From a virus (Duplodnaviria; Heunggongvirae; Uroviricota; Caudoviricetes): DNA of 64,000 nucleotides. Position 1 is the stretch's first letter; each line of letters begins with the position of its first letter. Location: IMG/VR virus record IMGVR_UViG_2880372215_000004, one strand, 5' to 3'. Positions 1,237 to 34,028 of the stretch are shown piece by piece. The position numbers and the translations under genes are program-made. Below the pieces are notes generated by a model. It did not search any database. It had not been told where the DNA came from and saw only the letters and a list, made by a program, of their open reading frames with translations.

Positions 1237-1237
1237 A

Positions 1238-1453
1238 TCATGAGTCTTTGATAAACTGATTTATCTTTGGATAGTTATACCAGATAATCCCTCGCTTACT
1301 GTCTGGCTTCCCTAAAGGAGATACTCGTTTGAAGTGGAAGCCTTCCACCCAACAGTTCTGGCGGTATGCTTCAATTTGTCTGGCCCCCAGACCAGTGCGA
1401 AGCATCAGGCCGTATTCAACCATCCACTCTTCATTAAAGATTACTTGTGCCAT
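1238..1453 (-). CDS. xis: Excisionase (YdaQ/XisR-like), 71 aa from internal ATG
   Basis: Lies immediately upstream of int. The sequence [46 protein letters not shown] is a typical lambdoid Xis/YdaQ sequence. Start chosen at Met9 of the tracked ORF. Confidence 0.75.
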
Positions 1454-1552
1454 CGCATCACCTCTGGCAGGCGCCAATGTTAGACTTAAATTGACGCCCG
1501 ATGTTGATTATTAATAATCAGCTATGAAGTTTTAATTTGAATACAATGCAAT

Positions 1553-1753
1553 TCACGAGGACTGAAGTTTCTCGCAATTAAAATTTATCAGTTTTACTTT
1601 CTGCTCTCTGGAAACGCCTGCTTCTTTTTTACCTGAGAGCATTTTTTCGCATTCTGATTTCGTTAGTTTAGATTTTGAATATCTTGTCCAGTTAGTAGGA
1701 GTGCCACCTTCCTTTTCAATAGTGGCGGTAATTTTATACATGAACACCTCCAT
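1553..1753 (-). CDS. ydaC: Rac prophage protein YdaC-like
   Basis: MEVFMYKITATIEKEGGTPTNWTRYSKSKLTKSECEKM... recalled as K-12 YdaC, in the syntenic position between xis and ralR. Start uncertain. Confidence 0.6.
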   Translation of the reverse strand: MEVFMYKITATIEKEGGTPTNWTRYSKSKLTKSECEKMLSGKKEAGVSREQKVKLINFNCEKLQSS

Positions 1754-1778
1754 TATTATTTCCAGTGGTTCGTTTATT

Positions 1779-1928
1779 TCATCGTTCGAGTGCTTCTTTT
1801 TCACTTCCACCATAACCGGTTCGGGATTCGCATCCGTTACACTTCGCTCGGTAATATCCTGAAATGGCTTTCACCGTTACTGATGGACAACCACAAAATG
1901 GACATGGTTTAACATTGTCATATCTCAT
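1779..1928 (-). CDS. ralR: Restriction-alleviation protein Lar/RalR (49 aa, shorter C-terminus than K-12 RalR)
   Basis: Hand translation of the minus strand gives MRYDNVKPCPFCGCPSVTVKAISGYYRAKCNGCESRTGYGGSEKEALER*. It has a zinc-ribbon CxxC...CxxC pattern. Too short for the ORF track. Syntenic with Rac ralR, directly upstream of recT in coordinate terms. Confidence 0.65.
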   Translation of the reverse strand: MRYDNVKPCPFCGCPSVTVKAISGYYRAKCNGCESRTGYGGSEKEALER

Positions 1929-1983
1929 AATTTTTCTCATAAAAATATTTCAAGTTGGCGGTGCATTACACCGCCAGGCTGAA

Positions 1984-2793
1984 TTATTCCTCTGAATTAT
2001 CGATTACACTGTATTCCCCGGTTAATACAGAGGAATCTGCAGGATCGATTGTCAGTGGTTCCTTTTCATCCATTGATACTGCACGCTGGATCTCAATTGA
2101 TACGGGCAGATATTTGAACAGGCGACGAATAGCCGTTTTCTTTGCCATTTCTTCCCAGTGAGTTACCCACGGCCCGTTATTACCAGCTTTACTCTGGCTG
2201 CGCACCAGCTCAATCTGTTTGCGCGTCATAACTTCAAACTGAGTACCTCCGTCTTTCAGTCTTGCGACAGCATAGACGTGGGTAACAGGGGCATCTTCGT
2301 TTTCTCCTGGGCGGTGTATTAACTTTTCATCAAGGCCAAATTCGAAATTAAACTCGTCACCTTCACGGACAACACGGGCTGACAAGCTGGCGATTTGACC
2401 TGAACGGCGAGCCAGATCAATCATGCCTCGATAGCCAATGATTAGCTGAACGTTTTTTTTACCGCTCTTTTCGTTTTTATTACCAAAAGGCAGTAAATAT
2501 GCATGACCGAGGGCGCTACCGGGCTCAAGTCCGAGCTGTGAACACTGTACGATTGCACTGACAAAACTCATAGTGTCACAGTTTCCTAACGCCGGAACTT
2601 TACGAATTTCTGTGGTGGCGATACGGATCATACGTTCAGCCGTCATATGGCGTGGAAGAGCTGCTGCCAGTTGCTCTTTCATTGATGGCTGGTTAATAAA
2701 ACTAATCACGTCGTTATTTTTAATTGCTGCTGGTGCACGGTTTCCCTGAGTTTTTTGCAGATCGGCTTTTGCGATTGGTGGTTGCTTAGTCAT
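1984..2793 (-). CDS. recT: Recombinase RecT (single-strand annealing protein), 269 aa
   Basis: [23 protein letters not shown]...SVIDNSEE is nearly identical to K-12 RecT as I recall it. Start set at the internal ATG (Met20 of the tracked ORF), which overlaps the recE stop by 8 nt as in Rac. Confidence 0.95.
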
Positions 2794-5386
2794 TTGCATA
2801 TTCCTTAGCCCAGCGGGGCAGTGATAACGTCTTAATAGCTGGCCATTCATCGGTATTGAGGCAGTCAGCCAGGGTTCGCAGATTGCGGTGATATTCCAGC
2901 TGACCTGCCAGTTTTGCTTCTTCGCCCATCATGAAAATTTCAACCGGATAACGTCCGCATTCAATAGTTGTGCTGGCAACCAGAAAAACGAAAGTTGGCT
3001 GCACTCCAAACTGTGCTTCATAACCGTCACTGTAGAATGCATCCTGAACGTGATAGCGGTAGTCGTAATAAGCGGTTTTGAATCGTTGAATATCCGCCGT
3101 AGTTTTCACGTCCATGATCCAGTGAAATTCAGGGATAATTTTGTCCGGACGGCACCGACACAAAATTGCTGTTTCAGGATCTTCCCAGTAAATTGATGAT
3201 TCAGCGTGTCCGGCGCTTTCAACAAGCCATTGCCCCAGCGGCAAAGCCATAACGCTCTGATACATGAGTTCAATTTTCCGGCCTTCTTCGGCAGTGATAA
3301 CCGTTTTTCCTGTGCTTGCGCATTCCCTCAGAAACGCTTTCTCTTCTTCTTTTCCGGAGTTTGTCCGGCGGTTAAATTCAGGTGCTACGATAAAGCGGTT
3401 ACTGAATTCTTCCGGCTCAAGTACCCGGCAGTGGAAAGCGGTTCCTAAATCGAGCGTTTTTGTCTTTGTGGTGTCCACGGGGGCATTTTTACGCCACAAA
3501 TACAGTGCCGGAGTATCAGCAATGTCATCGAGCTGAGACTTACTGACACCGGGACCCGCGTGGTAATTCTCATTCGAAATTCCGTAATAAATACCTGGCT
3601 CTATGTCTTCTACGATTACGGGATCTGCGACTTCGCCAGTTTCATCACTGCAATCGCGATGCGGATCGCTGCCAGCATTCTCATTGTGCGGATGTTCAGC
3701 GCCTTCCATTTCCTCCGGATCATTTTCCTTAGCTTCAACCTGACTCTCTTCATCGAATGTTTCCTGGTATGTTGCGTCGCCCATCACCGCACCACAGTCA
3801 GGGCAGTTATCCCCGCCAGTCTGGCCGCAGGCATTGCAGGCTATTTCCGGTTCCTGTTGCACTACTGGCTCAGGTTGATTCATATCCGGGCTGGTTTTTT
3901 CCGTTTCTGGCTGGTTCTGGTACACACAATCGCGAGTCTGGATCCCCTTTACCCATTTCGGATCGTTCGGGTCGCTAATTCCGTCAACAAATTCACCACG
4001 TGATGCAGCAAGCAATTTATCGGCATCGACAGGATTTTTTGATGGAATGTTTTTCCGGGCTTCATGGAGTTCTGCCCGCAGTTCCTGATATTTCGCATCA
4101 ACAGAATTTACCTGTGACTGAGCATCCAGCGGCTGCGTGTCCTGATGATGTTCAGTTGCGTCCGGTTCCATTGTTTCAGCCTCTCCCTGTTCAACTGCCG
4201 TTGTTCCAGATGGTTGCGGTTTTTCTTCATCATCCTGTTTTCCTTCTTCTGTTACTCGCTGCGGCATCGGGGCAGAGGAGCGACCGCAGGCAATATCCAC
4301 GATTTCCGGATCAGGGTTGGCATGATCGGTTTCAGTCAGTACTTTGTTCAGATATTCAGTGACGTGCGCGGGGATGACCTCGATCCCAATTGGTGCTTCT
4401 TTTACGGACGCAACCACGATGGCGCGGGAATAATCCAGCCCGCCAGGCATGGTGATGAATTTGTCGCGGAAAACAGAAAAGGGCGGTTTATTTTCAGCGA
4501 TAATTTCCTCAATGCGTTTAGCGTGTGCCGGATGAAGGTTATAGATGTCCAGATCCATTGAACGGGCCAGTACGCCAGTGGCTACGTCGCGCGCCAGTGA
4601 CGTCAGATCGTGTACGAAACCTTCGCCGCGATCGGTGAGGTTTCCGCCGCCAGCATTAGCACCGGAAGCCGTGCGAGTGATGTGTGAAACACGATTACCC
4701 TTCATCCACTCTTTTGTCAGCAGTCCTCGATCGGTGTAGTCAGCGTTCAGGTATGCTTCGAAAAAAGCAGTTATCAGTCCCAGGTTTGAATTACCAGGAT
4801 TAGGGAAAACTTTGTCAGTGTCACGAACCAGTTTGTGGAGTTCGCGAATTTCCAGCGGGTCGAGCAGGCTGGTTTTGTGGGAAACAGCCAGGGCAGTAAC
4901 AGCCGGTAGTTCTTCAGCCCGAGCAATGTGTAATGCCTGGAGTCCGTCGCGTGAAACGTGCGTTACCGGTTTTTCGCTGCCGTGTTGAGCAAGCCAACGA
5001 ATGGGCAGTTCCTGGCCAGAAATTGGGAGTAGCATATTCTCCTCAATCTCAGTCATGTCTTCGCCGTTGACGTTGGTATTGCCTTGATAGTGAGCGTTGT
5101 CTGGTGCTGCTCCCGGTTTTAGTTCCCATGTCATGGAGTCTTTGCTGAGTTGATAGCGTTCACTCCAGGTAAAATCGATCTCACCTTCAGCGGGCAGGTC
5201 ATTAACGACAGGAAAATTCGTGGCAACAGCTTTAAAATAGCTGCTCAGTTTTTTACCTGACTTAACGATCAGGTAGTCCAGAGTGGCACAGGTCGATTCA
5301 AAATCGTTGCTTGCCCACAGGACGACGTCAGGTTCACCGGATGATTTTTTCGCTTTCCGTAACAGGAAGAGTGGTTTTGTGCTCAT
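2786..5386 (-). CDS. recE: Exodeoxyribonuclease VIII RecE, 866 aa
   Basis: 866-aa ORF starting [32 protein letters not shown]. The C-terminal nuclease domain precedes recT. Length and sequence match Rac RecE from memory. Confidence 0.95.
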
Positions 5387-5487
5387 TGTTTTTTAACCTC
5401 AACTCAGATTAAAATTCGTTTTGTTCAGTGAATGATCTTGCCGGATACACACTGTTCATAGCCTGCGCCATACGCAGGCTATTTCTT

Positions 5488-5763
5488 TCAGATTTCACCT
5501 TTTAATTTCATTGCAATTAGAGTTGCCAGAAATTCGGCTTTTTTTTCTGTGGGCAGATTCTTTCCGATATGCACCAGGCACATTTTTTTGACACCTTCAT
5601 CAAGTGTTTTTACGTTGCCTGATGGACCATCGATATCAACCACAGTGAATGGGGTTTCTTTATTTTCTGTTTTAATTACGTAGCCAATGCGCTTTCCTTC
5701 CAGATTCACCTCGTGAACAATGTCATCGGTAGTTACAACAGTGGCTTCATAATTGGTAATCAT
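5488..5763 (-). CDS. racC: Rac prophage protein RacC, 91 aa
   Basis: MITNYEATVVTTDDIVHEVNLEGKRIGYVIKTENKETPFTV... recalled as RacC, in the syntenic position upstream of recE. Confidence 0.7.
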   Translation of the reverse strand: MITNYEATVVTTDDIVHEVNLEGKRIGYVIKTENKETPFTVVDIDGPSGNVKTLDEGVKKMCLVHIGKNLPTEKKAEFLATLIAMKLKGEI

Positions 5764-5837
5764 GTTTTTCTCCTTAATTAAGGTTGAGCGAATACCTGCC
5801 ATTTCTGGCATAAATTCAGTTTCGAATAGTCAATTAA

Positions 5838-6008
5838 TTAAAGTTCATGTGCCATCTGGTCTTTTTCGGCACAAGCTTCACTGCAATATTTTCTCGGTTC
5901 GTCTTTTGATAAAATCCCGTGCATGAAGTGAAGCATTCTTTCAATAGCTTTGCTTTCTTCAACGTCTTTTTTGCAAAGGTGGTAAGCACATTTTATTTTC
6001 TTAGTCAT
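5838..6008 (-). CDS. ydaE: Cys-rich small protein YdaE, 56 aa
   Basis: Hand translation gives [56 protein letters not shown]. Below the track size cut-off. Its start overlaps the kilR stop (TGATG). Confidence 0.65.
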   Translation of the reverse strand: MTKKIKCAYHLCKKDVEESKAIERMLHFMHGILSKDEPRKYCSEACAEKDQMAHEL

Positions 6009-6229
6009 CACCATGACTCCGCCTTTACAGGTAAACCATCACGACCGAGGAAGACTTTAATCATGCGGTCAGTAATGCATGTTTTTGTGGTCAGGTTACG
6101 AATATATAGTTTTCGCTTTTTAATATTGTTTGCCGAGGCAATATATGTCCGGCCTTCATGAAGAACATAATCGCCAGGAGTCACACACTGACGTGGTATT
6201 TCATCAGTTCCGAAGTGATGTGCAATCAT
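6008..6229 (-). CDS. kilR: FtsZ-inhibiting killing protein KilR, 73 aa
   Basis: [55 protein letters not shown] matches K-12 KilR from memory. Start at Met5 of the tracked ORF. Confidence 0.85.
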
Positions 6230-6470: not shown

Positions 6471-6670
6471 GTCGTTATTTACAACCGGAGGCGCACTCCC
6501 ACCATTTAAATTTAACAGACAAGACCGACTCTTTATGGATATCGGAAATGCGCCTTCGTGTTGTGCCCGGTTTTATTTCACCACCTCCGGGCTTCGGTGG
6601 TCTCGGCTATACCCCTACAGCGAGAGCTTGTGTTAACATTTCAATACCCTTACAGTTGAGAGTTATTGAT

Positions 6671-7159
6671 ATGTTGGATGTATTTACTCCATTGTTGAAA
6701 CTTTTTGCTAACGAGCCACTCGAAAGACTTATGTATACGATTATCATTTTTGGTCTCACTCTCTGGCTGATACCGAAAGAGTTTACTGTCGCATTCAATG
6801 CTTATACTGAAATACCTTGGCTCTTTCAGATTATCGTTTTTGCCTTTTCTTTCGTGGTCGCCATTTCCTTCTCAAGATTGCGAGCACATATTCAAAAGCA
6901 TTATTCATTACTACCAGAGCAACGAGTATTGCTTCGTTTATCTGAGAAAGAAATCGCTGTATTTAAAGATTTCCTTAAAACAGGAAATCTTATTATCACT
7001 TCTCCTTGCCGTAACCCGGTTATGAAAAAATTAGAACGGAAGGGCATCATTCAACATCAGAGTGATAGCGCAAACTGTTCTTATTATCTCGTCACCGAAA
7101 AATACTCCCATTTTATGAAGTTATTCTGGAACAGCAGGAGTAGACGTTTTAATCGTTAG
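6671..7159 (+). CDS. sieB: Superinfection exclusion protein SieB, 162 aa
   Basis: MLDVFTPLLKLFANEPLERLMYTIIIFGLTLWLIPKEF... matches Rac SieB from memory. Start at the internal ATG of the tracked ORF. Confidence 0.85.
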   Translation: MLDVFTPLLKLFANEPLERLMYTIIIFGLTLWLIPKEFTVAFNAYTEIPWLFQIIVFAFSFVVAISFSRLRAHIQKHYSLLPEQRVLLRLSEKEIAVFKDFLKTGNLIITSPCRNPVMKKLERKGIIQHQSDSANCSYYLVTEKYSHFMKLFWNSRSRRFNR

Positions 7160-7311
7160 CTTACTGTGTGCTTCTCCAACCATCGGCGCGCACCAGTTTC
7201 GGTTTTAAATGTTTTGCTTTTGGTATACGTCATGGCAGTGAACGTTCCATCCTGGTTGGGGAACACGCCGCACACCAGGGATTCGTTGTTGCCGAGGTCG
7301 ATTTTTTGCAT
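7156..7311 (-). CDS. ydaF: DUF1391-type small protein YdaF, 51 aa
   Basis: Hand translation gives MQKIDLGNNESLVCGVFPNQDGTFTAMTYTKSKTFKTETGARRWLEKHTVS*. A paralogue is present at 60988-61140. The tracked + ORF 7166-7384 is its antisense shadow. Confidence 0.7.
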   Translation of the reverse strand: MQKIDLGNNESLVCGVFPNQDGTFTAMTYTKSKTFKTETGARRWLEKHTVS

Positions 7312-7321
7312 TTTGCGAATC

Positions 7322-7456
7322 TCACATCTTGTTGCTACGTATAGCGACTTCTGCCTGCCAGAGATCCCAGTCGTTGCTGCGTAAAGCCTGCACAGCCTGG
7401 TTGTAAGTGATACCGCAACAATCCATCAAATACTGAACTACTTCGTAATGCACCAT
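7322..7456 (-). CDS. ydaG: Small protein YdaG, 44 aa
   Basis: Hand translation gives MVHYEVVQYLMDCCGITYNQAVQALRSNDWDLWQAEVAIRSNKM*. Recalled as Rac YdaG. Confidence 0.65.
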   Translation of the reverse strand: MVHYEVVQYLMDCCGITYNQAVQALRSNDWDLWQAEVAIRSNKM

Positions 7457-7626
7457 CTTATCTATCCCCTTAACGCCGGGTGGCGGAACTAACTGCTGCA
7501 CTGCAAAATTTGAATCCCGCCGTCATGTTCATACGCCTCGGGCTGGCTACTTAACCCCTGACCACTGCCTGGTAACTCGAAGTATTGCCCGGCGTTCTGT
7601 GGGGCGGGGTGGGTTGGTAGGTATAT

Positions 7627-7669
7627 AATGTACTTTGTGTTCATCATTGTAAAGTACTTTAAGTACATT
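7627..7669. promoter_or_regulatory. Candidate OL-type operator cluster / leftward early promoter
   Basis: Inverted pair ATGTACT (7628-7634) and AGTACAT (7662-7668) flank a central AAGTACTT palindrome. The same ATGTACT half-site recurs in the repressor-cro intergenic region. Confidence 0.4.
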
Positions 7670-7743
7670 TTATGTATAAAAAAATGAGACGGGATAAAGT
7701 GAAGCACAAACCCGGAGGGGGACGCTACCGGATTTATGCTGGT

Positions 7744-8163
7744 TTAAGAGGCTTTTTGTTTTTTCTTTCGTGCTAACTCTTCGTAAATTGCATTGTACTT
7801 CTGTTTTTTCTCCTCAAGAGTTTTTAAAAGTTCATCTGTCTCACTGTCAGGGAGCTCGTCCAGAAGGTCAATGATGATTTTTTGTCTTGGATTTAACTCC
7901 TGATAGAAACGTATCTGTCCACTTTCTTCTGTATCCTCTCCCAAAAGATAGGTTGGTGTTGTTCCAATGAGTGTTGCTAATTCCCTTAATTTCTCTCGGC
8001 GAGGAATTGTTTCACCATTAAACCATTTGCTAACCGCTTTTGGTGTTAATTTCATTCGACGGGCAATTTCTGCCTGCCTTCCATGTTGTTCATAACCAGC
8101 GTTTTCACAGGCTAGCGCAAGCCTACTGGCGAACTCTTTACGCGCTTTATCTTCATGAACCAT
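7744..8163 (-). CDS. Prophage repressor, HTH XRE family (RacR/CI-like), 139 aa
   Basis: HTH segment GRQAEIARRMKLTPKAVSKWFNGETIP. Divergent from a cro-like gene. No S24 peptidase domain. Confidence 0.8.
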   Translation of the reverse strand: MVHEDKARKEFASRLALACENAGYEQHGRQAEIARRMKLTPKAVSKWFNGETIPRREKLRELATLIGTTPTYLLGEDTEESGQIRFYQELNPRQKIIIDLLDELPDSETDELLKTLEEKKQKYNAIYEELARKKKQKAS

Positions 8164-8187
8164 AAGTTCAATGATATTCGCTCTTGA

Positions 8188-8218
8188 ATGTACTGTCAGT
8201 TCTGTTATAGCATGTACT
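8188..8218. promoter_or_regulatory. Candidate OR-type operators in the divergent repressor/cro promoter region
   Basis: Two ATGTACT half-sites (8188-8194 and 8212-8218) lie in the 79-bp divergent intergenic region. Confidence 0.4.
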
Positions 8219-8242
8219 CAAAGTTCACATTGTGAGGGTGAT

Positions 8243-8497
8243 ATGAACCAGAAAACACTTGAAGATGTAATCAAAACTGTTCGCGTTTCTGTTGTGGCCG
8301 ACGTTTGTGGTGTCAGCCAAAGAGCAATCTACAAATGGATGGATAACGGTAAATTGCCTCGCACAGAATATACCGGCGAAACAAATTACGCTGAAAAAAT
8401 CGCTCATGCATCAAACGGATTATTTTCTGCCGATGCAATTTTAACTATTGGCAGAAATAAAACTACTACGAAAAAGCTGATGGGAGTTGATTCATGA
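8243..8497 (+). CDS. Cro/YdaS-like HTH regulator, 84 aa
   Basis: MNQKTLEDVIKTVRVSVVADVCGVSQRAIYKWMDNGKLP carries an HTH motif. Divergent from the repressor and overlaps the ydaT start (ATGA). Confidence 0.7.
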   Translation: MNQKTLEDVIKTVRVSVVADVCGVSQRAIYKWMDNGKLPRTEYTGETNYAEKIAHASNGLFSADAILTIGRNKTTTKKLMGVDS

Positions 8498-8916
8498 AAA
8501 TCAAGCATGAGCACATCGAATCAGTGTTGTTAGCCCTGGCAGCCGAAAAAGGGCAGGCGTGGGTCGCTAACGCAATTACTGAAGAATATCTGCGCCAGGG
8601 GGGCGGCGAATTGCCCCTGGTACCAGGCAAGGACTGGAACAATCAGCAGAATATCTATCATCGTTGGTTGAAAGGTGAAACGAATGCGCAAAGGGAAAAA
8701 ATTCAGAAACTGATCCCTGCGGTTCTGGCAATTCTTCCTCGCGAGCTGCGTCACCGACTCTGCATCTTCGATACCCTGGAACGCCGTGCATTACTGGCGG
8801 CACAGGATGCACTGAGTACGGCAATTGATGCGCATGATGATGCAGTCCAGGCCGTTTACCGTAAAGCACATTTCAGCGGCGGCGGTTCTCCTAGCGATTC
8901 TGTCGTAGTGCATTGA
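8494..8916 (+). CDS. ydaT: YdaT (CII-like regulator family), 140 aa
   Basis: MKIKHEHIESVLLALAAEKGQAWVANAITEEYLRQGGGELPLVPGKDW... is near-identical to K-12 YdaT from memory. Confidence 0.85.
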   Translation: MKIKHEHIESVLLALAAEKGQAWVANAITEEYLRQGGGELPLVPGKDWNNQQNIYHRWLKGETNAQREKIQKLIPAVLAILPRELRHRLCIFDTLERRALLAAQDALSTAIDAHDDAVQAVYRKAHFSGGGSPSDSVVVH

Positions 8917-8960
8917 TTGAAATTAATCGTACCGAACTGTTTTGTTCGGTATCAGTTAAA

Positions 8961-9379
8961 TGTAACGCTGCGAGCGTTACAAGGTGAAAACAAATGGCTT
9001 CAAACTGGATAAAGCTCGAAGTTATTACGCCGGATAAGCCGGAAATATTCAGGCTTGCTGAGATTCTGAATATTGATCCAGATGCCGCATTAGGGAAAGT
9101 CATTCGCTTCTGGGCATGGGCGGATCAACAAATGATAGACGGTAACGCAGAGTGTAACGCTCGCGGCGTTACAAAAAGTGCAATAGATCGCATCACTTTT
9201 ATGGCTGGTTTTGCTGATGCGTTAATTCAGGTTGGATGGCTGGTCGAAACTAATGGTGTGTTGTCGCTTCCTAACTTTGAGCGCCATAACGGGAAAAGCT
9301 CTAAAAAACGGGCGGTTACAAACGAGAGAGTAACAAAAATACGAGAACTGAAACGAAAAGGTAACGCTGCCAGCGTTAC
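8961..9379. repeat. Three copies of a GTAACGC-N3-5-GCGTTAC palindrome (candidate replication origin / initiator binding sites)
   Basis: TGTAACGCTGCGAGCGTTACA (8961-8981), TGTAACGCTCGCGGCGTTACA (9153-9173) and GTAACGCTGCCAGCGTTAC (9361-9379). Extra half-sites at 9142-9148 and about 9315-9335. The copies are spaced ~190-210 bp across the 5' half of ydaU. Confidence 0.5.
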
Positions 9380-9782
9380 AAAAACGGATCAAAAAGCGTT
9401 ACCAGAGGAAGAGAAAGAGGAAGATATAAATACTTATCTCCCCCTAAATCCCCCTCGCCAAAAACGAGCGTCTAAAAAATTCGAACCGGAGGCTATCGAG
9501 CTGCCTGACTGGTTGCCGGAAACACTCTGGCATGAGTGGGTTCAGTTCAGGCAGGCATTGCGAAAACCGATTCGAACGGAGCAGGGCGCTAACGGGGCGA
9601 TACGGGAGCTGGAAAAATTCCGCCAGCAGGGTTTTTCACCTGAGCAGGTGATTCGACACAGCATCGCCAATGAATACCAGGGCTTGTTCGCGCCGAAAGG
9701 TGTTCGGCCAGAGACGTTGCTCCGACAGATTAACACCGTCTCGTTTCCGGACAGTGCGATCCCGCCAGGCTTCAGGGGGTAA
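8994..9782 (+). CDS. ydaU: Replication initiator-like protein YdaU, 262 aa
   Basis: MASNWIKLEVITPDKPEIFRLAEILNIDPDAALGKVIRFWAWADQQ. Sits upstream of a DnaC-like loader and contains the palindromic repeats. Confidence 0.65.
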   Translation: MASNWIKLEVITPDKPEIFRLAEILNIDPDAALGKVIRFWAWADQQMIDGNAECNARGVTKSAIDRITFMAGFADALIQVGWLVETNGVLSLPNFERHNGKSSKKRAVTNERVTKIRELKRKGNAASVTKTDQKALPEEEKEEDINTYLPLNPPRQKRASKKFEPEAIELPDWLPETLWHEWVQFRQALRKPIRTEQGANGAIRELEKFRQQGFSPEQVIRHSIANEYQGLFAPKGVRPETLLRQINTVSFPDSAIPPGFRG

Positions 9783-9788
9783 CAGACC

Positions 9789-10535
9789 ATGAAAAATATT
9801 GCGACAGGCGGCGTTCTGGAACGTATCCGCAGACTGGCCCCGCCACATGTAACCGCGCCATTCAGGACGGTGGCGGAGTGGCGCGAGTGGCAACTTGCAG
9901 AAGGCCAGAAACGTTGTGAGGAGATCAACCGTCAGAATCGTCAGTTGCGGGTGGAAAAAATCCTGAATCGCTCCGGCATACAGCCGTTGCACCGCAAATG
10001 CTCGTTTGCGAATTACCAGGTGCAGAACGACGGCCAGCGATACGCGTTGAGTCAGGCGAAATCTATCGCTGACGAACTGGTTACCGGATGCACAAATTTC
10101 GCGTTCAGCGGAAAACCTGGTACCGGAAAAAACCATCTGGCGGCGGCTATCGGGAATCGCCTGCTGAAAGATGGCCAGACAGTGATTGTGGTTACCGTGG
10201 CTGATGTTATGAGCGCCCTGCACGCCAGCTATGACGACGGGCAGTCAGGCGAAAAATTTTTGCGGGAACTGTGCGAAGTTGATCTGCTGGTTCTTGATGA
10301 AATTGGTATTCAGCGCGAGACGAAAAACGAGCAGGTGGTACTGCACCAGATTGTTGATCGCCGGACAGCGTCAATGCGCAGCGTGGGGATGCTGACAAAC
10401 CTGAACTATGAGGCCATGAAAACATTGCTCGGCGAGCGGATTATGGATCGCATGACCATGAACGGCGGGCGCTGGGTGAATTTTAACTGGGAGAGCTGGC
10501 GCCCGAATGTTGGTCAGCCAGGTATTGAGAAGTAA
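9789..10535 (+). CDS. ydaV: DnaC/IstB-like AAA+ helicase loader YdaV, 248 aa
   Basis: Walker [16 protein letters not shown] and Walker B LLVLDEIG. The sequence matches Rac YdaV from memory. Confidence 0.9.
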
Positions 10536-10557
10536 TTTTTACCGGGAGGAAATTTTA

Positions 10558-11319
10558 ATGGAGACCGTTTTTGACGCACTGAAAGCGATGGGAAAAGCCA
10601 CGTCGGTAGAACTGGCTACGCGACTTGATATCAGTCGAGAAGAAGTGCTGAACGAGCTGTGGGAACTGAAAAAGGCTGGCTTCGTTGATAAAAGCGTATA
10701 CACCTGGCGCGTGGCTGATAACAACGTTCAGCAGGAACAGCCAGCGCCGGCAGAGCTGCCGGAAGAAACCACCATGGCAACAGTAGCGAAAATCTCAGAG
10801 TGCGATTTAACCGCGACGATTGAACAACGTGGCCCACAAACGGCGGATGAGTTGGCTACATTGTTCGGTACCACATCACGCAAAGTAGCTTCAACGCTGG
10901 CAATGGCTATCAGCAAAGGACGCCTGATTCGCGTAAACCAGAACGGTAAATTTCGTTACTGCATACCGGGCGATAATTTACCAGCAGAGCCGAAAGCAGC
11001 ATCGGTAGCGGAAACTGATGGTAAGGCCTTTCCTCAGCCCACAGGTGTTGCGTTACCAGTACAGGAGGCTGCAACACAGGAAGATATTAAAACAGAAACG
11101 GTGGCGGACATTGTGCAGTCGCTGCCATCGTTTACTGAAACGCGAGCGGATGACCTGGTTTTACCATCGCTGCATATGGCAAACCGCGAACTGCGTCGGG
11201 CGAAAAATCATGTCCAGAAGTGGGAGCGAGTCTGCGCCGCGCTGCGGGAGCTGAACAAGCACCGGGATATTGTTCGACAGATTTTCGATTCCTCCAGTCG
11301 TATTGTGTCGGAAAAGTGA
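10558..11319 (+). CDS. Hypothetical phage protein with two winged-helix-like segments (YdaW-like position), 253 aa
   Basis: RBS GGGAGGA lies before the ATG. Winged-helix-like segments are [33 protein letters not shown] and [34 protein letters not shown]. Confidence 0.55.
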
Positions 11320-11334
11320 TTGCCGGAGGCACCT

Positions 11335-11757
11335 ATGGCAAAAGTATTTACACCAGAAGAGCGGGAAAAAATTAAAGGGCAGGTTGTTGAACTTGTACGT
11401 CTGAGCGGTCGCGAGACGTTACGGGCTCTGGAGGCTAAAACCGGTGCATCAAGGTATTACATAAGCACTCTCGCCAGAGAACTGGTCGCCAGTGGTGATG
11501 TTTACAATTCAGGCTACGGATTATTCCCGTCTGAGCAGGCGCGTAAAGACTGGCAAAACGCCCGCAAAAAACTATCAAGGGCAAAGGTGAAGAAACCGGT
11601 TGTGGTTGATCCGGATCTTATCTGGTCATTACCAGACGGAGAAATACGCCGCTACGACAGGCGTCTGAACATAATCTGTAGCGAGTGCCGGAAGAGCGAA
11701 GCTATGCAGCGTGTACTGGCTTTCTATCAGGGTAATTTTCAGAAGGTGCTGTTGTGA
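11335..11757 (+). CDS. Hypothetical phage protein, 140 aa
   Basis: ORF from MAKVFTPEEREKIKGQVVELV, co-directional in the early-right operon. No motif recognised. Confidence 0.5.
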   Translation: MAKVFTPEEREKIKGQVVELVRLSGRETLRALEAKTGASRYYISTLARELVASGDVYNSGYGLFPSEQARKDWQNARKKLSRAKVKKPVVVDPDLIWSLPDGEIRRYDRRLNIICSECRKSEAMQRVLAFYQGNFQKVLL

Positions 11758-11862
11758 GCCAAATTAACAATCGGAACTTCGTGAAGAGAAAGCATAATCC
11801 AAATCTGAATAATTAAGTTCAGCACTGTAAATAAAATTTAATCCTTAACTGGAGGTATATTT

Positions 11863-12075
11863 ATGTTAAATACACAGAAAGCCATTAATGCGGAAAAATA
11901 TAACGAGTGGGCAAGAAAATTCTCTGAGCAGATTTTTAAAATTACTGGCGATGAGAATGCGGCAAAAAATGAATTAGAACCGTGGACGCCTGAAGGAGCC
12001 GACCCAAATTATTGCTGGAGGGAGGTTGATCCAGTTGATGCTGCAAATGAAGCTATGAGTTATCACAACGATTAA
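11863..12075 (+). CDS. Hypothetical small phage protein, 70 aa
   Basis: ORF preceded by GGAGGT. Acidic protein with no motif recognised. Confidence 0.45.
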   Translation: MLNTQKAINAEKYNEWARKFSEQIFKITGDENAAKNELEPWTPEGADPNYCWREVDPVDAANEAMSYHND

Positions 12076-12326
12076 TGTCAGGAGGCCGCCCGAAAGGGCG
12101 GTAATGAATGGTCACATTATTTAGAAAAAATATCCGCGAAAGAGTAGAACAACAGAATTTCTGTTTCTCATTCTGTTTATCGTGTTGATGATACCGATAT
12201 CCCCGTTAATCCTAGTCTGGATAATCGGAAAAATAATTGAGCCAGTTATTGAATTGTATAACGACGTGGTATGGGCGTCATTCAACACACTGCACAATAA
12301 AATTAATCCGTATAAGGAAAACTGAT

Positions 12327-12590
12327 ATGGCAACTTTGACAAAAAAAGAACGGGCATGGTTGAACGAATTACAGGAAGTTCTTGATCGCTGTCCATCACC
12401 GAAAAAAATTGGCTTTTACACCATTGGCGATAAAAGCATTTACCTGTATGACCTACGCCGCATGGATGAAATCATGGAGGCTCTTGATAATCGTTCGTCG
12501 ATGGATTGGTGTGTTGCTGTTCATGATATGAATGCAGGGTTTGATGAAAAGATTTTGTTCCCCTCATCAGTTGAAAGCACTGCGGGTTAA
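12327..12590 (+). CDS. Hypothetical phage protein, 87 aa
   Basis: MATLTKKERAWLNELQEVLDRCPSPKKIGFYT. Internal ATG of the tracked ORF, preceded by AAGGAAAA. Confidence 0.5.
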   Translation: MATLTKKERAWLNELQEVLDRCPSPKKIGFYTIGDKSIYLYDLRRMDEIMEALDNRSSMDWCVAVHDMNAGFDEKILFPSSVESTAG

Positions 12591-12600
12591 GGAGTAACAC

Positions 12601-13086
12601 ATGACCACTATTACCAAAGAACGTATTGAATTGTTCATTAAAAATCCGGTTGAAAACGGGCTTACCCGTGGTGAACAAATGGAACTGGCACGGATTGCGC
12701 TGGCATCGCTGGAAGCAGAGCCAGTTGGTGATTTTTATGAATACAAACCGGATGACTGGTAGCAGCGTTCGGCTGGAGATAAAGCGCCAAAATGGACGCC
12801 ACCCTATGCCGTTTTTCCAGCGCCCGTAGTGCCGGAAGAAATGGATTTGCTTACATGCCATCTCGATGGTGTAACTGAAACATATGCTGAGGGATGGAAC
12901 GCTTGCCGCGCTGCCCTGCTTCAGGGCAAAGGGGAGCCCGGGAAACAAGTTCGCGAATTGACAATGCTGGTTAAACAATTGGTTAGTCAACTGAAGAAAG
13001 CGAAACCGGGCTGCAAATTGCCGGATAAAGTGATGGACTACCTGGAGCGAAGCGGACTTATAAGCGTGGAGGATGTTTCACGATGA
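12601..13086 (+). pseudogene. Phage gene interrupted by an in-frame amber codon (53-aa N part, and a C part annotated from 12829)
   Basis: ATG 12601 and the tracked ORF 12829-13086 share one reading frame. They are separated only by TAG at 12760-12762, and no ATG start follows in that frame before 12829. Confidence 0.45.
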
Positions 13087-13476
13087 CCTGGCCTGAAGCA
13101 TTCACAACGGTAGGAATTGCGATGGCGGTGGCGCTGGTTGTGTATTCGATTTGCCGCTGGGGATAAAAACGATTTGCGGGAAAAGGATAGTTAAGTAGAA
13201 TTGCTGCGGGTGCTTGAGGCTATCTGCCTTGGGCATGAACACCAAAGGCAGATAGAGAAAAACCCACCCGACTATAAATCAAAGTGTATTACCCCCATTT
13301 GTTGGACGATGAAATGGGTTTAGTTAACTATGTCGGTATCGACATGACTAAAACAACCTTAAATTGCTCGATTAATAGACAAGTAGTTTTGAAAGATTAA
13401 ATTTATGCGATCCGGTATTTTCAAGGGATAGCCTTTATGAGGTTATCTTATGGGGTTAAAACATCAAGAACAGTTG

Positions 13477-13485
13477 TGTTATAAT
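13477..13485 (+). promoter_or_regulatory. Extended -10 promoter element (TGtTATAAT) upstream of the methyltransferase gene
   Basis: TGTTATAAT at 13477-13485, about 32 nt before the ATG at 13518, in AT-rich DNA. Confidence 0.45.
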
Positions 13486-13517
13486 ACATAGAAACTAATA
13501 AGAGACGTTGCAACTAT

Positions 13518-14669
13518 ATGAATGTAATAGATTTGTTTTCTGGCGTTGGAGGTCTAAGTCTTGGTGCTGCACGTGCTGGATTTGATGTTAAAATGGCAGT
13601 TGAAATTGATCAACATGCTATTAATACTCACGCAATTAATTTTCCAAGAAGTTTGCACGTCCAAGAAGATGTTTCTTTACTAAATGCAGAAATAATTAAG
13701 GGTTTTTTTAAAAACGATATGCCCATAGATGGTATTATTGGCGGTCCTCCGTGCCAAGGATTTAGTTCAATAGGCAAGGGGAATCCTGATGATAGCAGGA
13801 ATCAGCTTTACATGCATTTCTACCGTTTAGTATCAGAATTACAGCCATTATTCTTTTTGGCAGAAAATGTTCCAGGTATTATGCAAGAGAAATATTCTGG
13901 CATTAGAAATAAAGCATTTAATTTGGTTAGCGGTGATTATGATATTCTTGATCCCATCAAGGTAAAAGCATCTGATTATGGTGCTCCAACTATTCGAACT
14001 AGATATTTTTTTATCGGTGTAAAAAAATCATTGAAGCTTGATATTTCAGATGAAGTATTTATGCCTAAAATGATTGATCCGGTTACTGTAAAAGATGCTT
14101 TGTATGGATTACCAGATATTATCGATGCCAATTGGCAATCAGACTCTGAGAGTTGGCGAACAATTAAAAAAGATCGAAAAGGGGGATTTTATGAAAAATT
14201 ATGGGGGCAGATCCCTCGGAATGTTGGTGATACAGAATCGATCGCTAAGTTAAAAAATAATATCATATCTGGATGTACCGGAACATTACATAGCAAAATC
14301 GTCCAAGAGCGTTATGCTTCCTTATCTTTTGGGGAAACTGATAAAATTTCAAGATCTACAAGATTAGATCCAAATGGTTTTTGCCCGACTTTAAGGGCGG
14401 GAACCGCTAGAGATAAAGGAAGCTTTCAAGCCGTCAGGCCGATCCACCCTTATCATCCAAGAGTGATTACACCAAGAGAAGCTGCTAGATTACAAGGCTT
14501 CCCTGATTGGTTTCGCTTTCATGTAACTAAATGGCATAGTTTCAGACAAATAGGAAATAGCGTGTCACCAATAGTTGCTGAATATATATTAAAGGGGCTG
14601 TACAATTTATTAAATAAAAGAGTACAGCCCGAATATTTAAACCATAATTCTTTGGAAGTTAGGGTATAA
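13518..14669 (+). CDS. DNA (cytosine-5)-methyltransferase, 383 aa
   Basis: All diagnostic C5-MTase motifs are present: I DLFSGVGGLSLG, IV GGPPCQGFS, VI FLAENVPG, VIII TIRTRYFFIG, IX RVITPREAARLQGFPDWF and X QIGNSVSP. Confidence 0.95.
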   Translation: MNVIDLFSGVGGLSLGAARAGFDVKMAVEIDQHAINTHAINFPRSLHVQEDVSLLNAEIIKGFFKNDMPIDGIIGGPPCQGFSSIGKGNPDDSRNQLYMHFYRLVSELQPLFFLAENVPGIMQEKYSGIRNKAFNLVSGDYDILDPIKVKASDYGAPTIRTRYFFIGVKKSLKLDISDEVFMPKMIDPVTVKDALYGLPDIIDANWQSDSESWRTIKKDRKGGFYEKLWGQIPRNVGDTESIAKLKNNIISGCTGTLHSKIVQERYASLSFGETDKISRSTRLDPNGFCPTLRAGTARDKGSFQAVRPIHPYHPRVITPREAARLQGFPDWFRFHVTKWHSFRQIGNSVSPIVAEYILKGLYNLLNKRVQPEYLNHNSLEVRV

Positions 14670-15629
14670 CCTATAGTATTTATAATAGTTATCCCGTTCA
14701 TTTTCGTTTAAAGAGAACTCTTCAGCGGCTGCCTGATATGCTTCTTTATCAGGCAGTTTACTATCTAAATTTATCTTTTCTTTAATTGTTAGTGTTGGTA
14801 TTGCTATTTCTTGCACGTCTTCCCAATTTGTTGAATAAAATTGCCAGTTAGAAAGGTCGCATGCCTTAGATAACTCTATATATTCTTGTTCTGAGGAGAA
14901 AAAACCTGATATTGTCAACATGGTATGACTGCCATCATTATATTGATTTAAGGATAATGGGTAATACTGAATCTTATCCTTACGTCCTGAAAGACCACGT
15001 TCTATTGCTGATCTAAAAGCGTTTGTAATAATTCGTATTAAAAGAGCTTTAATCTTACGATCTGAAAGATCTGCATTTGATATCTGAAGATTAAAATCAA
15101 GATACTTTTTCCCAAGCAATGATTTTAATGAATTAATAAAAGCTTCTTTAAAAATATCTAAACTTTCTCCAACTCTACGTTGGTAATAAGAACTAGGATT
15201 TATGGGGAAGGTGACCTTCAAAATATCAAAAGAGCTTACTTTAGTACTTAGTAAGTGTATATCATCTAGATCCGTTTGTATTTTTTTCGGGGAGGCATAG
15301 TCTAACCATGTTATTGATGGTTTAGAAAAACTATAATCAAGAATAAAGTCATGAGCTGATATTAGCTTACAATCAATACAATTATAAGGCAAATTATATT
15401 TTTGTCTGATGTGAGTAGACTCTTGTTCTTCGAGAGAAATCATATCAGAAAGAGCGATACGATTATGCATGATTCTAAAATCTTCAAGCATCGGACCACC
15501 AAAACCTATATATGTATATTCTTGAATATTTAGTCTTTTGCTTAAGAGGTTTAGGCTTTCGAGAAAAATCTCTCTATCAATAGACTTATTATGCCTTAAG
15601 TGATAGGGAATGTATTGTCCAGACATCAC
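14637..15629 (-). CDS. Unknown 330-aa partner of the MORC-like ATPase. The N-terminal half has a Rossmann/SAM-MTase-like motif pattern
   Basis: The GTG/ATG start overlaps the upstream stop (GTGATG), indicating translational coupling. Motifs are YTYIGFGGPMLEDF, MISLEEQES and ITWLDYASP. The C-terminus ends YYKYYRLYPNFQRIMV. The 3' end overlaps the convergent MTase gene by 33 nt. Confidence 0.7.
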   Translation of the reverse strand: MMSGQYIPYHLRHNKSIDREIFLESLNLLSKRLNIQEYTYIGFGGPMLEDFRIMHNRIALSDMISLEEQESTHIRQKYNLPYNCIDCKLISAHDFILDYSFSKPSITWLDYASPKKIQTDLDDIHLLSTKVSSFDILKVTFPINPSSYYQRRVGESLDIFKEAFINSLKSLLGKKYLDFNLQISNADLSDRKIKALLIRIITNAFRSAIERGLSGRKDKIQYYPLSLNQYNDGSHTMLTISGFFSSEQEYIELSKACDLSNWQFYSTNWEDVQEIAIPTLTIKEKINLDSKLPDKEAYQAAAEEFSLNENERDNYYKYYRLYPNFQRIMV

Positions 15630-17017
15630 TTCACCTCTTCAATCACCGTATCAAAGCATTGCATCCCCACATCAGAAGCGCTAGCATCTTCATGTCCAAA
15701 GAAATATTTAGATAAAATTTTAACATCTTCTTTCTCTCTGGTGAAGATTATTCGTACAGTAGAGCTTTTTTTTACTGGGGTAGGCAGCTTAGGTGTATAT
15801 CGCCACTCATTTTTGTTTCTATTAGGGTTGGACCAGTTATTTTTTTTATCTTCTGGAGTTGATTGTGGGGTAATTTCAAATAAAGATTGAGCTTCATGTG
15901 ACTGAGCTGACTTAAGTAATTTTTTCCCTTCTTCAAGATGCTCACCTTTCCACTGATTGGTGAATCGAATAAAATGCATCATCCCTTCAATCATTTTATT
16001 TCGTACATCATTGTACAATGTAGAACTAAGATCGACACCTCGTTTCGTTGTTGTTATTGGTAATTTTTCTGGGTTTTTACTGGTAAAGCGAACAACCCCA
16101 GAAATTGCTATAAATTGGGTATGAAACCTTGGTACATTAGCAAAGCCCCAACCTGTGAGATGTGTCTTATCACAATATAGAACAACGCGGTCATTGCAAA
16201 TGACAGTCCATCCAGCATCATCAGAACTCCTTTTTTCTAAAACATCATCATTGTCATCTTCTAAATTTTTATAGAAGCCAACAACTAAATCGATATCAAC
16301 ATCGTCTATTTTAGCTTTATATATGTATGGTTCTATTTTAGAATGATCAGTTATGATGTTAATCGGATTATGTTCAACAACAACTCCATTTAATTCTATT
16401 TTAAATCCTTTTTGAATAATAAATGACAATGAGTGTTTTATCTGTAAAAAGAGATCAGTAAGATATGTGCTCTCATTAAATTTTTGTGCCACATTAGAAT
16501 GGAGTTTTTTTATCTCTATAGTTGTGCCTGTTGGATTTTTGTTATCATAGTCACTCTCGTGCATCGGTATTTTCCAACCATCACCATCGATCCAATCAGG
16601 TGTTATATCTACAGTGAATGCGCCATCGGGATTATTCGATTGTATTGAGCAATCTCTACCCATTTTAAAAATGGCTCTTTTCATACCAATACCATAGACG
16701 CCAACGGTGCCTTCATTTTCTTCTTCTTTTTGATGGGGTCGTCCCATTTTAAAAGCATATTCTCGGAAGCTTTTAGGGATACCTCCGCAATTGTCTTCTA
16801 TAATAAAGACATCTTTATTAATCGTAAGTTTCGCATAAAATCCTTCATATGGTTTTGAAGTTTTTTTTGTGTCTTTTATTGTACGTAAAGCCCCATCGAC
16901 GCAGTTATCAAGCAGATCAAGTATGGCATCGTTTAAGTCGATATCTCGAGTTAGCATACTTACAAAAAATCTTTTACTAGGACTAAAGTCTGCTGTTGGA
17001 GTCGTGTTCTCAGTCAT
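15626..17017 (-). CDS. MORC-like GHKL (Bergerat-fold) ATPase, 463 aa
   Basis: N-box DLLDNCVDGA, G1 box IIEDNCGGIP and G2 box GVYGIGMKRAIF. An S5-like transducer segment follows: GWTVICNDRVVLYCDKTHLTGWG...FIAISGVVRFTS...LPITTTKRGVDLSS. Confidence 0.85.
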   Translation of the reverse strand: MTENTTPTADFSPSKRFFVSMLTRDIDLNDAILDLLDNCVDGALRTIKDTKKTSKPYEGFYAKLTINKDVFIIEDNCGGIPKSFREYAFKMGRPHQKEEENEGTVGVYGIGMKRAIFKMGRDCSIQSNNPDGAFTVDITPDWIDGDGWKIPMHESDYDNKNPTGTTIEIKKLHSNVAQKFNESTYLTDLFLQIKHSLSFIIQKGFKIELNGVVVEHNPINIITDHSKIEPYIYKAKIDDVDIDLVVGFYKNLEDDNDDVLEKRSSDDAGWTVICNDRVVLYCDKTHLTGWGFANVPRFHTQFIAISGVVRFTSKNPEKLPITTTKRGVDLSSTLYNDVRNKMIEGMMHFIRFTNQWKGEHLEEGKKLLKSAQSHEAQSLFEITPQSTPEDKKNNWSNPNRNKNEWRYTPKLPTPVKKSSTVRIIFTREKEDVKILSKYFFGHEDASASDVGMQCFDTVIEEVK

Positions 17018-17079
17018 AATTTACTCTCTATGTGTTTGGGAAAATAAATACCTTAAGTGCAAATTGTTGATTTTAAACG

Positions 17080-17093
17080 CTTCGCATGCGAAG
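17080..17093. promoter_or_regulatory. Perfect 14-bp palindrome CTTCGCATGCGAAG in the promoter region of the MORC operon (operator candidate)
   Basis: Lies 63-76 nt upstream of the start codon at 17017. Flanked by GTTGA/TCAAC arms. A second palindrome, AATAACATATGTTATT, is at 17192-17207. Confidence 0.35.
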
Positions 17094-17516
17094 TCAACGA
17101 TGTTAAGAAAGAAAGTGCATGTGATCTAACAGTATGTTTTTAAAAAAAGATTAGCTTTATGAGAATTCAGGACTGAATCCCGTGAGAGGAAAATAACATA
17201 TGTTATTGTTGCATTGCTGTGTTGTTTGGGATTTGTTGCACCATTCTGGCGTTGGTATATCTAGTTCGTTGTTCATTTTGTTAATTGTACAACAGGCAGA
17301 CAACAGAGAGCTTTTAGCCTAGTTAGCTTACGAAATTAAACAACTAAGATTATCGGCGGGGAGTGGTCACCGCTACTCTTTGGCTAGGAGACTTCAACGC
17401 AACCGCACACAACCAGCTTCGGCGGGTTTTGTTTTTTCCTGGCATTCTGGTTTACAATTTGCGTGCTAGCTTGAACAACTGGCATCTGCTGCACTGCGCC
17501 ATCGAGAGATTGAGAA

Positions 17517-19096: not shown

Positions 19097-19172
19097 GGCC
19101 CTTTAGCTCAGTGGTGAGAGCGAGCGACTCATAATCGCCAGGTCGCTGGTTCAAATCCAGCAAGGGCCACCA
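19097..19172 (+). tRNA. ileZ: tRNA with CAU anticodon, ileX/ileZ-like (Ile2, or Met)
   Basis: 76-nt cloverleaf GGCCCTT...AAGGGCCACCA with anticodon loop CTCATAA. Closely resembles E. coli ileX and the Stx-phage ileZ from memory. Confidence 0.85.
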
Positions 19173-19272: not shown

Positions 19273-19349
19273 GCGTTGTTAGCTCAGCCGGACAGAGCAA
19301 TTGCCTTCTAAGCAATCGGTCAGTGGTTCGACTCCACTACAACGCGCCA
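19273..19349 (+). tRNA. tRNA-Arg (UCU), reads rare AGA/AGG codons
   Basis: 77-nt cloverleaf: acceptor GCGTTGT/ACAACGC, anticodon arm ATTGC-CTTCTAA-GCAAT, T arm AGTGG-TTCGACT-CCACT, 3' GCCA. Confidence 0.85.
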
Positions 19350-31281: not shown

Positions 31282-31503
31282 ATGGCAAAGATCCGATATC
31301 TGCAGGGCACGCATGATGCCCGGGCCGGGGATATCCGTGATGTGGCACAGCCGTGTGCGGAGGTGCTGGTTCGCCTGGGGAAGGCGGAGTACATCACAGC
31401 GCGACGTCCGGCAGGTCAGAAAAAGAAACGTGATGCGGAGCATGGCGAATGTGGAACCTTTTGCGGCGAACCCGAAAAAACCAGAAATCAGGACGTGACG
31501 TAA
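31282..31503 (+). CDS. Hypothetical small head-region ORF, 73 aa
   Basis: ORF between the capsid and portal genes. The N-terminal half looks protein-like. Overlaps the portal start, so it is uncertain. Confidence 0.3.
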   Translation: MAKIRYLQGTHDARAGDIRDVAQPCAEVLVRLGKAEYITARRPAGQKKKRDAEHGECGTFCGEPEKTRNQDVT

Positions 31504-34026: not shown

Positions 34027-34028
34027 AA

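Follow-up and report, generated by a model that had tools for sequence, protein, structure and literature searches.

A methyltransferase-fold protein that accompanies MORC ATPases and Dcm-type methylases: a possible restriction-like module in a lambdoid prophage

What would a protein that resembles a methyltransferase do beside an ATPase and a second methylase, with no obvious nuclease at hand? The gene that raises this question lies at 14637-15629 of the Caudoviricetes record IMGVR_UViG_2880372215_000004, of which we analysed a stretch of 64,000 nucleotides (nt), here called the window; all coordinates refer to the whole of it. An initial annotation, made from the letters of the DNA alone, had seen in the gene product a series of motifs recalling Rossmann-type methyltransferases that use S-adenosylmethionine (SAM). 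Its observations proved correct and its interpretation was supported in part. We find that the product is a member of the PF20553 (Methyltransf_35) family of 329 amino acids (aa), for which we use the label MT35, that its gene is invariably paired with one for a MORC-family ATPase, and that a Dcm-type C5 cytosine methylase is a frequent third partner. We consider it possible, with somewhat less than even confidence, that MORC, MT35 and Dcm together constitute a methylation-gated, restriction-like module lacking a canonical nuclease.

The reading frame at 14637..15629 is open on the minus strand only, the plus strand being riddled with stop codons, and it is a real gene: its product matches PF20553 over its full length (E 2e-89; 300.4 bits against a gathering threshold of 27; residues 2-329 on model positions 1-308/309). 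A GTG start gives 330 codons; RefSeq takes the next codon, an ATG (15626), as the start and so arrives at 329 aa; we number residues from this ATG. The protein is identical to RefSeq WP_000016656.1, annotated 'O-methyltransferase'. The gene and the parts of it on which our argument draws are the following.

14637..15626, minus strand: coding sequence of MT35, a 329-aa class I methyltransferase-fold protein, PF20553
15573..15611, minus strand: N-terminal motif IPYHLRxNKxxxR, aa 6-18; Y8, H9, L10, R11, K14 and R18 invariant (n = 75)
15477..15512, minus strand: motif I region YIGFGGPMLEDF, aa 39-50; glycine loop right after strand 1; G43 and D49 invariant
15429..15443, minus strand: end of strand 2, MISLE, aa 62-66; residue 66 is Glu in 74 of 75 sequences and Asp in one; strand limits from the model
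15288..15308, minus strand: motif IV position, WLDYASP, aa 107-113; W107 and D109 invariant, residue 110 Tyr or Phe

PF20553, which Pfam calls 'Putative O-methyltransferase', was also matched by all 29 aligned MT35 homologues, and a profile search of 1.84 billion cluster representatives returned 2,126 members at E <= 1e-3. The top 150 representatives showed no domain fusion; all stand alone, and almost all are 300-380 aa long, with two shorter fragments. An AlphaFold2 model built with the 29 homologues (predicted local distance difference test 89.4, predicted template-modelling score 0.88) has strands at residues 38-42, 61-66, 84-88, 104-109, 135-141, 220-230 and 235-244. Its predicted topology, five strand-helix units followed by a hairpin of strands 6 and 7, is that of a class I SAM-methyltransferase, and it carries a helical insert of 70 residues (about 145-215) and a helical C-terminal part (about 246-317); residues 1-8 are of low confidence. 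The model bears out the beta-alpha pattern that had been perceived in the N-terminal half. The C-terminal half, whose strings are present as reported, had been called unfamiliar; it contains no separate unknown domain but contributes strands 6 and 7 to the methyltransferase core and continues with a helical sub-domain.

Conservation, computed over 75 homologues with identity down to 25%, singled out 19 positions that are invariant in every sequence: Y8, H9, L10, R11, K14, R18, Y39, G43, D49, R74, Q75, N78, W107, D109, T139, D231, W261, P277 and E283. The strings from which the motif series had been assembled were all recovered, YTYIGFGGPML (aa 37-47), MISLEEQES (aa 62-70) and WLDYASP (aa 107-113), the last at the structural position of motif IV (end of strand 4) as supposed; G43 and E66 are 23 residues apart, close to the spacing of about 25 that had been given. 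The glycine loop G41-F-G43-G44 follows strand 38-42, and E66 sits where class I methyltransferases have the motif II acidic residue for the SAM ribose. Since G43, E66 and D109 are conserved and lie at the ends of strands 1, 2 and 4, the cofactor site of a working methyltransferase looks intact in alignment and model. Some 16 further invariant residues, polar or aromatic, make up an enzyme-like pattern.

The view that MT35 has no recognisable catalytic signature stands insofar as the canonical (D/N/S)PP(Y/F) is absent: the motif IV position reads W-(L/F)-D109-(Y/F)-x-x-P, with Pro-Pro in none of the 75 sequences. It fails insofar as D109, followed by an invariant or nearly invariant Tyr or Phe, occupies that structural position. 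The departure from (D/N/S)-P-P-(Y/F/W) sets MT35 apart from the DNA N6/N4 amino-methyltransferases with which a comparison had been proposed, and it rules out assigning the family to the known amino-methyltransferase chemistry. The other proposed relatives, RlmJ/TcmP-like proteins, were not borne out either, MT35 showing neither specific sequence similarity nor closest structural similarity to RlmJ. Nor did we find in MT35 a nuclease fold or catalytic motif, of PD-(D/E)xK or another type, which the initial annotation had named as the outcome that would speak against its reading.

These features bear on whether MT35 might be a pseudo-enzyme, an adaptor that gives MORC its target or its regulation and binds SAM merely as a sensor or not at all. 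Besides lacking the canonical motif IV, the family evolves fast and shows no detectable sequence-level kinship to active methyltransferase families. Yet 19 invariant residues, a glycine loop and acidic ends of strands 2 and 4, all kept at 25% identity, would be unusual for a scaffold, and we hold this explanation to be improbable.

Searches for kin gave nothing specific. In the 29 family members no other Pfam family appeared at E <= 10, including any O-methyltransferase family; the MT35 profile drew only spurious matches among PDB sequences (HMG-CoA synthase, serpin; E > 0.05); NCBIfam gave no match; and a viral structure library returned only generic methyltransferases with template-modelling scores of 0.3-0.4. 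Alignment of the MT35 profile with that of the Dcm methylase of the same locus by hhalign was not significant (probability 0.2%), and we do not use as evidence the glycine loop, strand-2 Glu and N-x-P that it lined up. The RefSeq name 'O-methyltransferase' is unsupported, and it hides the link to the ATPase and Dcm. A true O-methyltransferase would act not on DNA but on a protein or small molecule, for example by carboxyl-methylating MORC as a switch in the manner of CheR or LCMT, or by modifying a metabolite. The family name that suggests this is only 'putative', O-methyltransferase families give no matches at the sequence level and the top structural neighbours are RNA base methyltransferases. 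As strict linkage to the DNA-acting MORC, Dcm, Vsr and HNH proteins also points to nucleic acid, we give very little credence to such a role.

The gene upstream of MT35 has the features listed here.

15626..17017, minus strand: coding sequence of a MORC-family GHKL+S5 ATPase, 463 aa, the upstream partner of MT35
15624..15628, minus strand: stop/start overlap TGATG, in which the MORC TGA (15628-15626) shares its A with the MT35 ATG (15626-15624)
16181..16213, minus strand: MORC signature in the S5 domain, G269-WTVICND-R277-VV, fitting GhXhhpXXRhl
16892..16930, minus strand: GHKL N-box DAILDLLDNCVDG, aa 30-42, with an invariant Asp34 four residues before the Mg-binding Asn38

Pfam recognises only HATPase_c_3 in this protein. 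It nevertheless has the GHKL motifs, an S5 domain and the GhXhhpXXRhl motif, which is MORC-defining in Iyer, Abhiman and Aravind (2008; PMC2292703). G269, W270, T271, C274, N275, D276 and R277 of the signature are invariant in 30 homologues of the ATPase, and its last 100 or so residues are helical, without nuclease similarity. Four cysteines are invariant as well: C39 and C77 within the ATP-binding motifs, C274 in the signature and C454 near the C-terminus. The overlap of the MORC stop with the MT35 start implies translational coupling.

This pairing is not a peculiarity of one prophage. A pattern scan taking one genome per species yielded 80 MT35 loci from Proteobacteria, Cyanobacteria, Firmicutes, Chloroflexota, Verrucomicrobia, Latescibacterota and other phyla. 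In about 79 of them MT35 directly follows the MORC gene in the same orientation, the exception being truncated at a contig end, and the two open reading frames usually overlap by 4 nt. Across phyla the ATPase retains 43-47% identity, against 25-36% for MT35.

The third gene of the window's locus converges on MT35.

13518..14669, plus strand: coding sequence of a Dcm-type C5 DNA cytosine methyltransferase, 383 aa, convergent with MT35 (Pfam DNA_methylase, E 2.6e-61)
14637..14669: convergent 3'-end overlap of dcm and MT35, 33 nt, from the gene coordinates

The product is nearly identical to PDB 3G7U (phmmer E 1.3e-254, residues 1-367), so that one of the three cassette proteins has an experimental structure; in PADLOC it matches MTase_II together with the generic DruM and DrmMII models. 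A Dcm homologue adjoins the MORC-MT35 pair in 66 loci, and its position takes four forms: it lies upstream in the same orientation in 32, downstream and convergent in 26, downstream in the same orientation in 7 and upstream but divergent in 1. Convergent overlaps elsewhere measure 5-49 nt. Dcm is missing from 13 loci, six of them in Nostocales or other cyanobacteria, and most of the others end at contig edges; a supposed loss in a Yersinia locus was rejected, the gene being present but uncalled. Where Dcm reaches 48% identity or more to its E. coli counterpart, as it does in 46 loci, few parts of the protein are as well conserved as the target-recognition region, which suggests one specificity travelling with the pair.

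A Vsr-like gene is the commonest extra neighbour (n = 22), and from this we judge the cassette-type Dcm to be probably active. The same observation could be taken to mean that the pair deals with side effects of C5 methylation, either as a MutL-like (MORC) module acting with or parallel to Vsr in very-short-patch repair of the T:G mismatches left by deamination of 5-methylcytosine, or by controlling Dcm. The association is not tied to a single specificity but spans more than one subfamily of C5 methylases, and MORC is related to MutL, the helper of Vsr in E. coli, a matter of general knowledge that is also discussed in PMC2292703. Against this, Vsr co-occurs with the pair instead of being replaced by it, and the pair is also found without a linked C5 methylase as well as in an operon with an N6-type methylase fragment (see below). 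A methyltransferase fold has no obvious part in mismatch repair, and a setting of prophages, integrative and conjugative elements and defence islands points to conflict and not to repair. The explanation seems to us a very unlikely one.

Within the window the three genes form a unit of their own.

13300..17300: low-GC island, 28-42% GC against 45-52% in the flanks, containing exactly three genes (dcm, MT35 and MORC)
17070..17097, minus strand: sigma-70-like site TTGACT-16-TAAAAT, located some 50 nt ahead of the MORC start

The island is a moron of a lambdoid prophage, with the replication genes on one side and the DUF1367/antiterminator genes on the other. Because such sites are no more numerous in the region than in shuffled sequence, the sigma-70-like site is only a weak candidate for an operon promoter.

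Elsewhere, too, the cassette resides in mobile elements and defence islands. Lambdoid prophages of Yersinia and Enterobacter have it in the same slot, and the same three genes form the accessory end (280-3711) of the filamentous Pseudomonas Pf phage PfAC20 (PP058144.1), where they are annotated as an ATP-binding protein, a 'hypothetical' protein (the MT35 homologue) and a C5 methylase; that genome has an extra short 'DNA cytosine methyltransferase' reading frame at 5438-6082. Endonuclease genes of the HNH_5 and HNH_2 types adjoin the pair in about 10 loci, and other neighbours include type I and type ISP restriction-modification (R-M) genes and relaxases. In a single case, a Myxococcota metagenome-assembled genome (JBDNFB010000067.1, 239-12323), the pair sits within an operon resembling class 1 DISARM, in the order MmeI_TRD methylase fragment, SNF2 helicase, MORC, MT35, 1,198-aa helicase (DrmA-like), MZB/DUF1998 and PLD nuclease. 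This arrangement suggests that the pair can plug into other methylation-based defence systems. In seven loci a second, distant GHKL gene with 22-26% identity to the cassette MORC stands beside Dcm. A Rhodoferax metagenome-assembled genome (L010, about 6600-13700) has two diverged MORC-MT35 pairs that converge on one Dcm and an HNH_5-cluster gene; the proteins of the second pair are 23% and 33% identical to those of E. coli.

Do the partners evolve together? Co-evolution with the ATPase had been proposed as a check, and it was found: in the 65 loci with the complete set of three genes, the identity of MT35 rises with that of MORC (Spearman 0.47, regression slope 1.07). Together with the variety of the adjoining Dcm proteins, this makes the pair one evolutionary unit that is combinable with different C5 methylases. 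Mean identity is 34% for MT35, 45% for MORC and 46% for Dcm; faster evolution of MT35 would fit restriction or specificity components, for which it is usual.

We thus propose, tentatively, the following working of the restriction-like module. Dcm would mark resident DNA with 5-methylcytosine, and a complex of MORC and MT35 would act on DNA that lacks the mark. MT35 would bind SAM and provide SAM-dependent engagement of the nucleic acid, be it base-flipping recognition or true methyl transfer. MORC would be an ATP-driven dimerising clamp, as eukaryotic MORCs are. Incoming DNA might then be excluded or silenced, or the host become addicted to the cassette, and the effector step could consist of non-nucleolytic entrapment, of a cryptic nuclease activity or of nucleases recruited from outside, such as the HNH proteins of some loci.

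Several observations weigh against this proposal. MT35 identity does not track Dcm identity in the 65 loci (Spearman 0.12; coefficient for a shared Dcm group -0.008), and close pairs (MORC 72%, MT35 69% identical) adjoin Dcm genes that are only 35% identical. Co-variation thus gave no sign of an MT35 specificity matched to Dcm; with MORC divergence taken into account, MT35 divergence does not depend on Dcm type, and this speaks against the idea that MT35 reads the site of Dcm. Six cyanobacterial loci, among them three of Scytonema and Nostoc, have the MORC-MT35 pair by itself, flanked by housekeeping genes of the ndh type, and no C5 methylase lies within 8 kb of it, so that the pair cannot be lethal for want of a linked Dcm. 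The cassette MORC has an invariant Asp34 where GHKL ATPases, we assume, usually carry a catalytic Glu, and its ATP turnover may therefore be slow. MT35 and MORC are mildly acidic, with isoelectric points of about 6 against 9.1 for Dcm. No nuclease domain was found in any of the three core genes, in keeping with the earlier remark on two methyltransferase-like proteins and an ATPase without an obvious nuclease, and none of the PADLOC v2.0 models, DISARM, BREX, MZA and Druantia included, matches MT35 or the ATPase. The cyanobacterial pairs are syntenic in three Nostocales genomes and have GFGGH, not GFGGP, in the glycine loop.

Some of these points would suit a different role, in which MT35 is a second DNA-modifying enzyme that the MORC clamp loads or activates and that sets an additional methyl mark, whether on a different base or atom or at 5-methylcytosine sites; the cassette would then be a two-mark modification module, protective or epigenetic, without restriction. 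Its SAM-site residues are intact and many more are invariant, as in an active enzyme; the nearest structures are nucleic-acid base methyltransferases (RsmD, Trm1 and RlmI-like); the cassette has no detected nuclease; orphan methylases are, as is generally known, common in this region of lambdoid phages; and the pair persists in Nostocales without a linked Dcm. On the other side, the motif IV position is unlike that of known amino-methyltransferases, MT35 is mildly acidic, and a dedicated MORC ATPase would be of no obvious use to a plain methylase. The DISARM-like operon with its own MmeI-like methylase fragment, and the HNH neighbours, fit an effector better. On balance this role appears unlikely.

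A bolder form of the restriction-like proposal would make MORC-MT35 a nuclease-free immune module and the prokaryotic forerunner of eukaryotic silencing by MORC and DNA methylation. MT35 would detect or tag DNA without the C5-methyl mark, by SAM-dependent base flipping or methyl transfer, and load MORC clamps, which would entrap and compact the foreign DNA and so block its replication or expression without cutting. We rate this specific version as distinctly unlikely.

Whichever role is correct, the cassette is a minimal MORC system, consisting of MORC, one invariant partner and a Dcm of solved structure. It occurs in a prophage of E. coli O157:H7, a tractable host, and belongs to a widespread family of more than 2,000 clusters in many phyla. 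To establish the role of MT35 would show how MORC is coupled to DNA methylation in bacteria, whether restriction without a nuclease is feasible and what PF20553 does. We found no study of PF20553 or of the MORC-MT35-Dcm cassette in the literature, nor experimental data for any member, and no experimental study of the prokaryotic MORC ATPases predicted to act in R-M.

The surroundings are those of a Rac-site lambdoid prophage of E. coli O157:H7 and related Shiga toxin-producing E. coli. It has xisR, recET, kilR and sieB on the left, then replication, lysis, head and tail genes and NleG-like effectors, followed by the chromosomal uspF, ompN and nifJ. Of 5,426 complete E. coli genomes, 172 contain the 4-kb cassette with at least 99% identity, every time on the chromosome. 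Downstream of the antiterminator region the prophage has two tRNA genes: the first (19097-19172, plus strand) is tRNA-Met (anticodon CAT) according to ARAGORN and tRNA-Ile in RefSeq, and the second (19273-19349, plus strand) is tRNA-Arg (TCT). The matching RefSeq record also has sodC among the tail genes (about 42676-43203, minus strand) and DUF1076 genes, which we take to be the NleG-like effectors, at about 49266-51266 on the minus strand (coordinates converted from that record). In the same record the portal gene (about 31468-34052, plus strand) and the chromosomal ompN (about 52422-53535, minus strand) are annotated as pseudogenes with frameshifts; the prophage may therefore be defective.

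How, finally, does the cassette compare with what is known? MT35 itself is already catalogued, as a member of PF20553 that does not differ from it in sequence, under a Pfam name that is putative and an annotation from which the partnership with MORC is absent. The novelty lies in the invariant pairing of MORC with MT35 and in a layout of three genes without a nuclease. The nearest structures are RNA base methyltransferases of the RsmD, Trm1 and RlmI types (PDB 3P9N, 2IFT, 3AXT and 1WXW), to which MT35 has no sequence-level match and an identity of only 8-14%. They have DPPF or DPFG where MT35 has D-(Y/F)-x-x-P, and they lack its N-terminal YHLRxNK motif, its 70-residue helical insert and its C-terminal helical sub-domain.

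From gene neighbourhoods, Iyer, Abhiman and Aravind (2008; PMC2292703) predicted that prokaryotic MORCs work in R-M systems. As far as the available text of that paper goes, the cassette resembles its MORC and paraMORC neighbourhoods in the GHKL+S5 architecture and GhXhhpXXRhl motif of the ATPase and in the linkage to a cytosine methylase and Vsr. The loci with a second, distant GHKL gene recall its paraMORC1, and this gene of the four-gene variant may indeed be paraMORC1. The same text stresses helicase and nuclease partners, whereas the core of our cassette has neither, and it does not describe the methyltransferase-fold partner that is invariant here. Neighbourhoods with a MORC and a methylase and no helicase are mentioned in it only as a minority, to which the cassette may correspond.

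Among defence systems, the cassette is not filed as type II R-M, since it has a methylase and no recognisable endonuclease domain was found in it; nor can it be filed as DISARM, BREX or MZA, as no PADLOC model matches. MZA shares with it a GHKL ATPase (the MutL-like MzaB) in a defence context, although identity with MZA was rejected, the NCBIfam match to MzaB being negligible. WonAB and VcSduA of Vibrio cholerae, likewise considered, proved unrelated. The closest parallels in logic are type III R-M, BREX and DISARM: like them, the cassette combines a self-marking methylase with ATP-using partners that would act on unmarked DNA, and it travels in mobile elements and defence islands. Unlike theirs, its motor is a GHKL ATPase rather than a helicase or an AAA+ protein, and its marking methylase, Dcm, is separate from the methyltransferase-fold partner.

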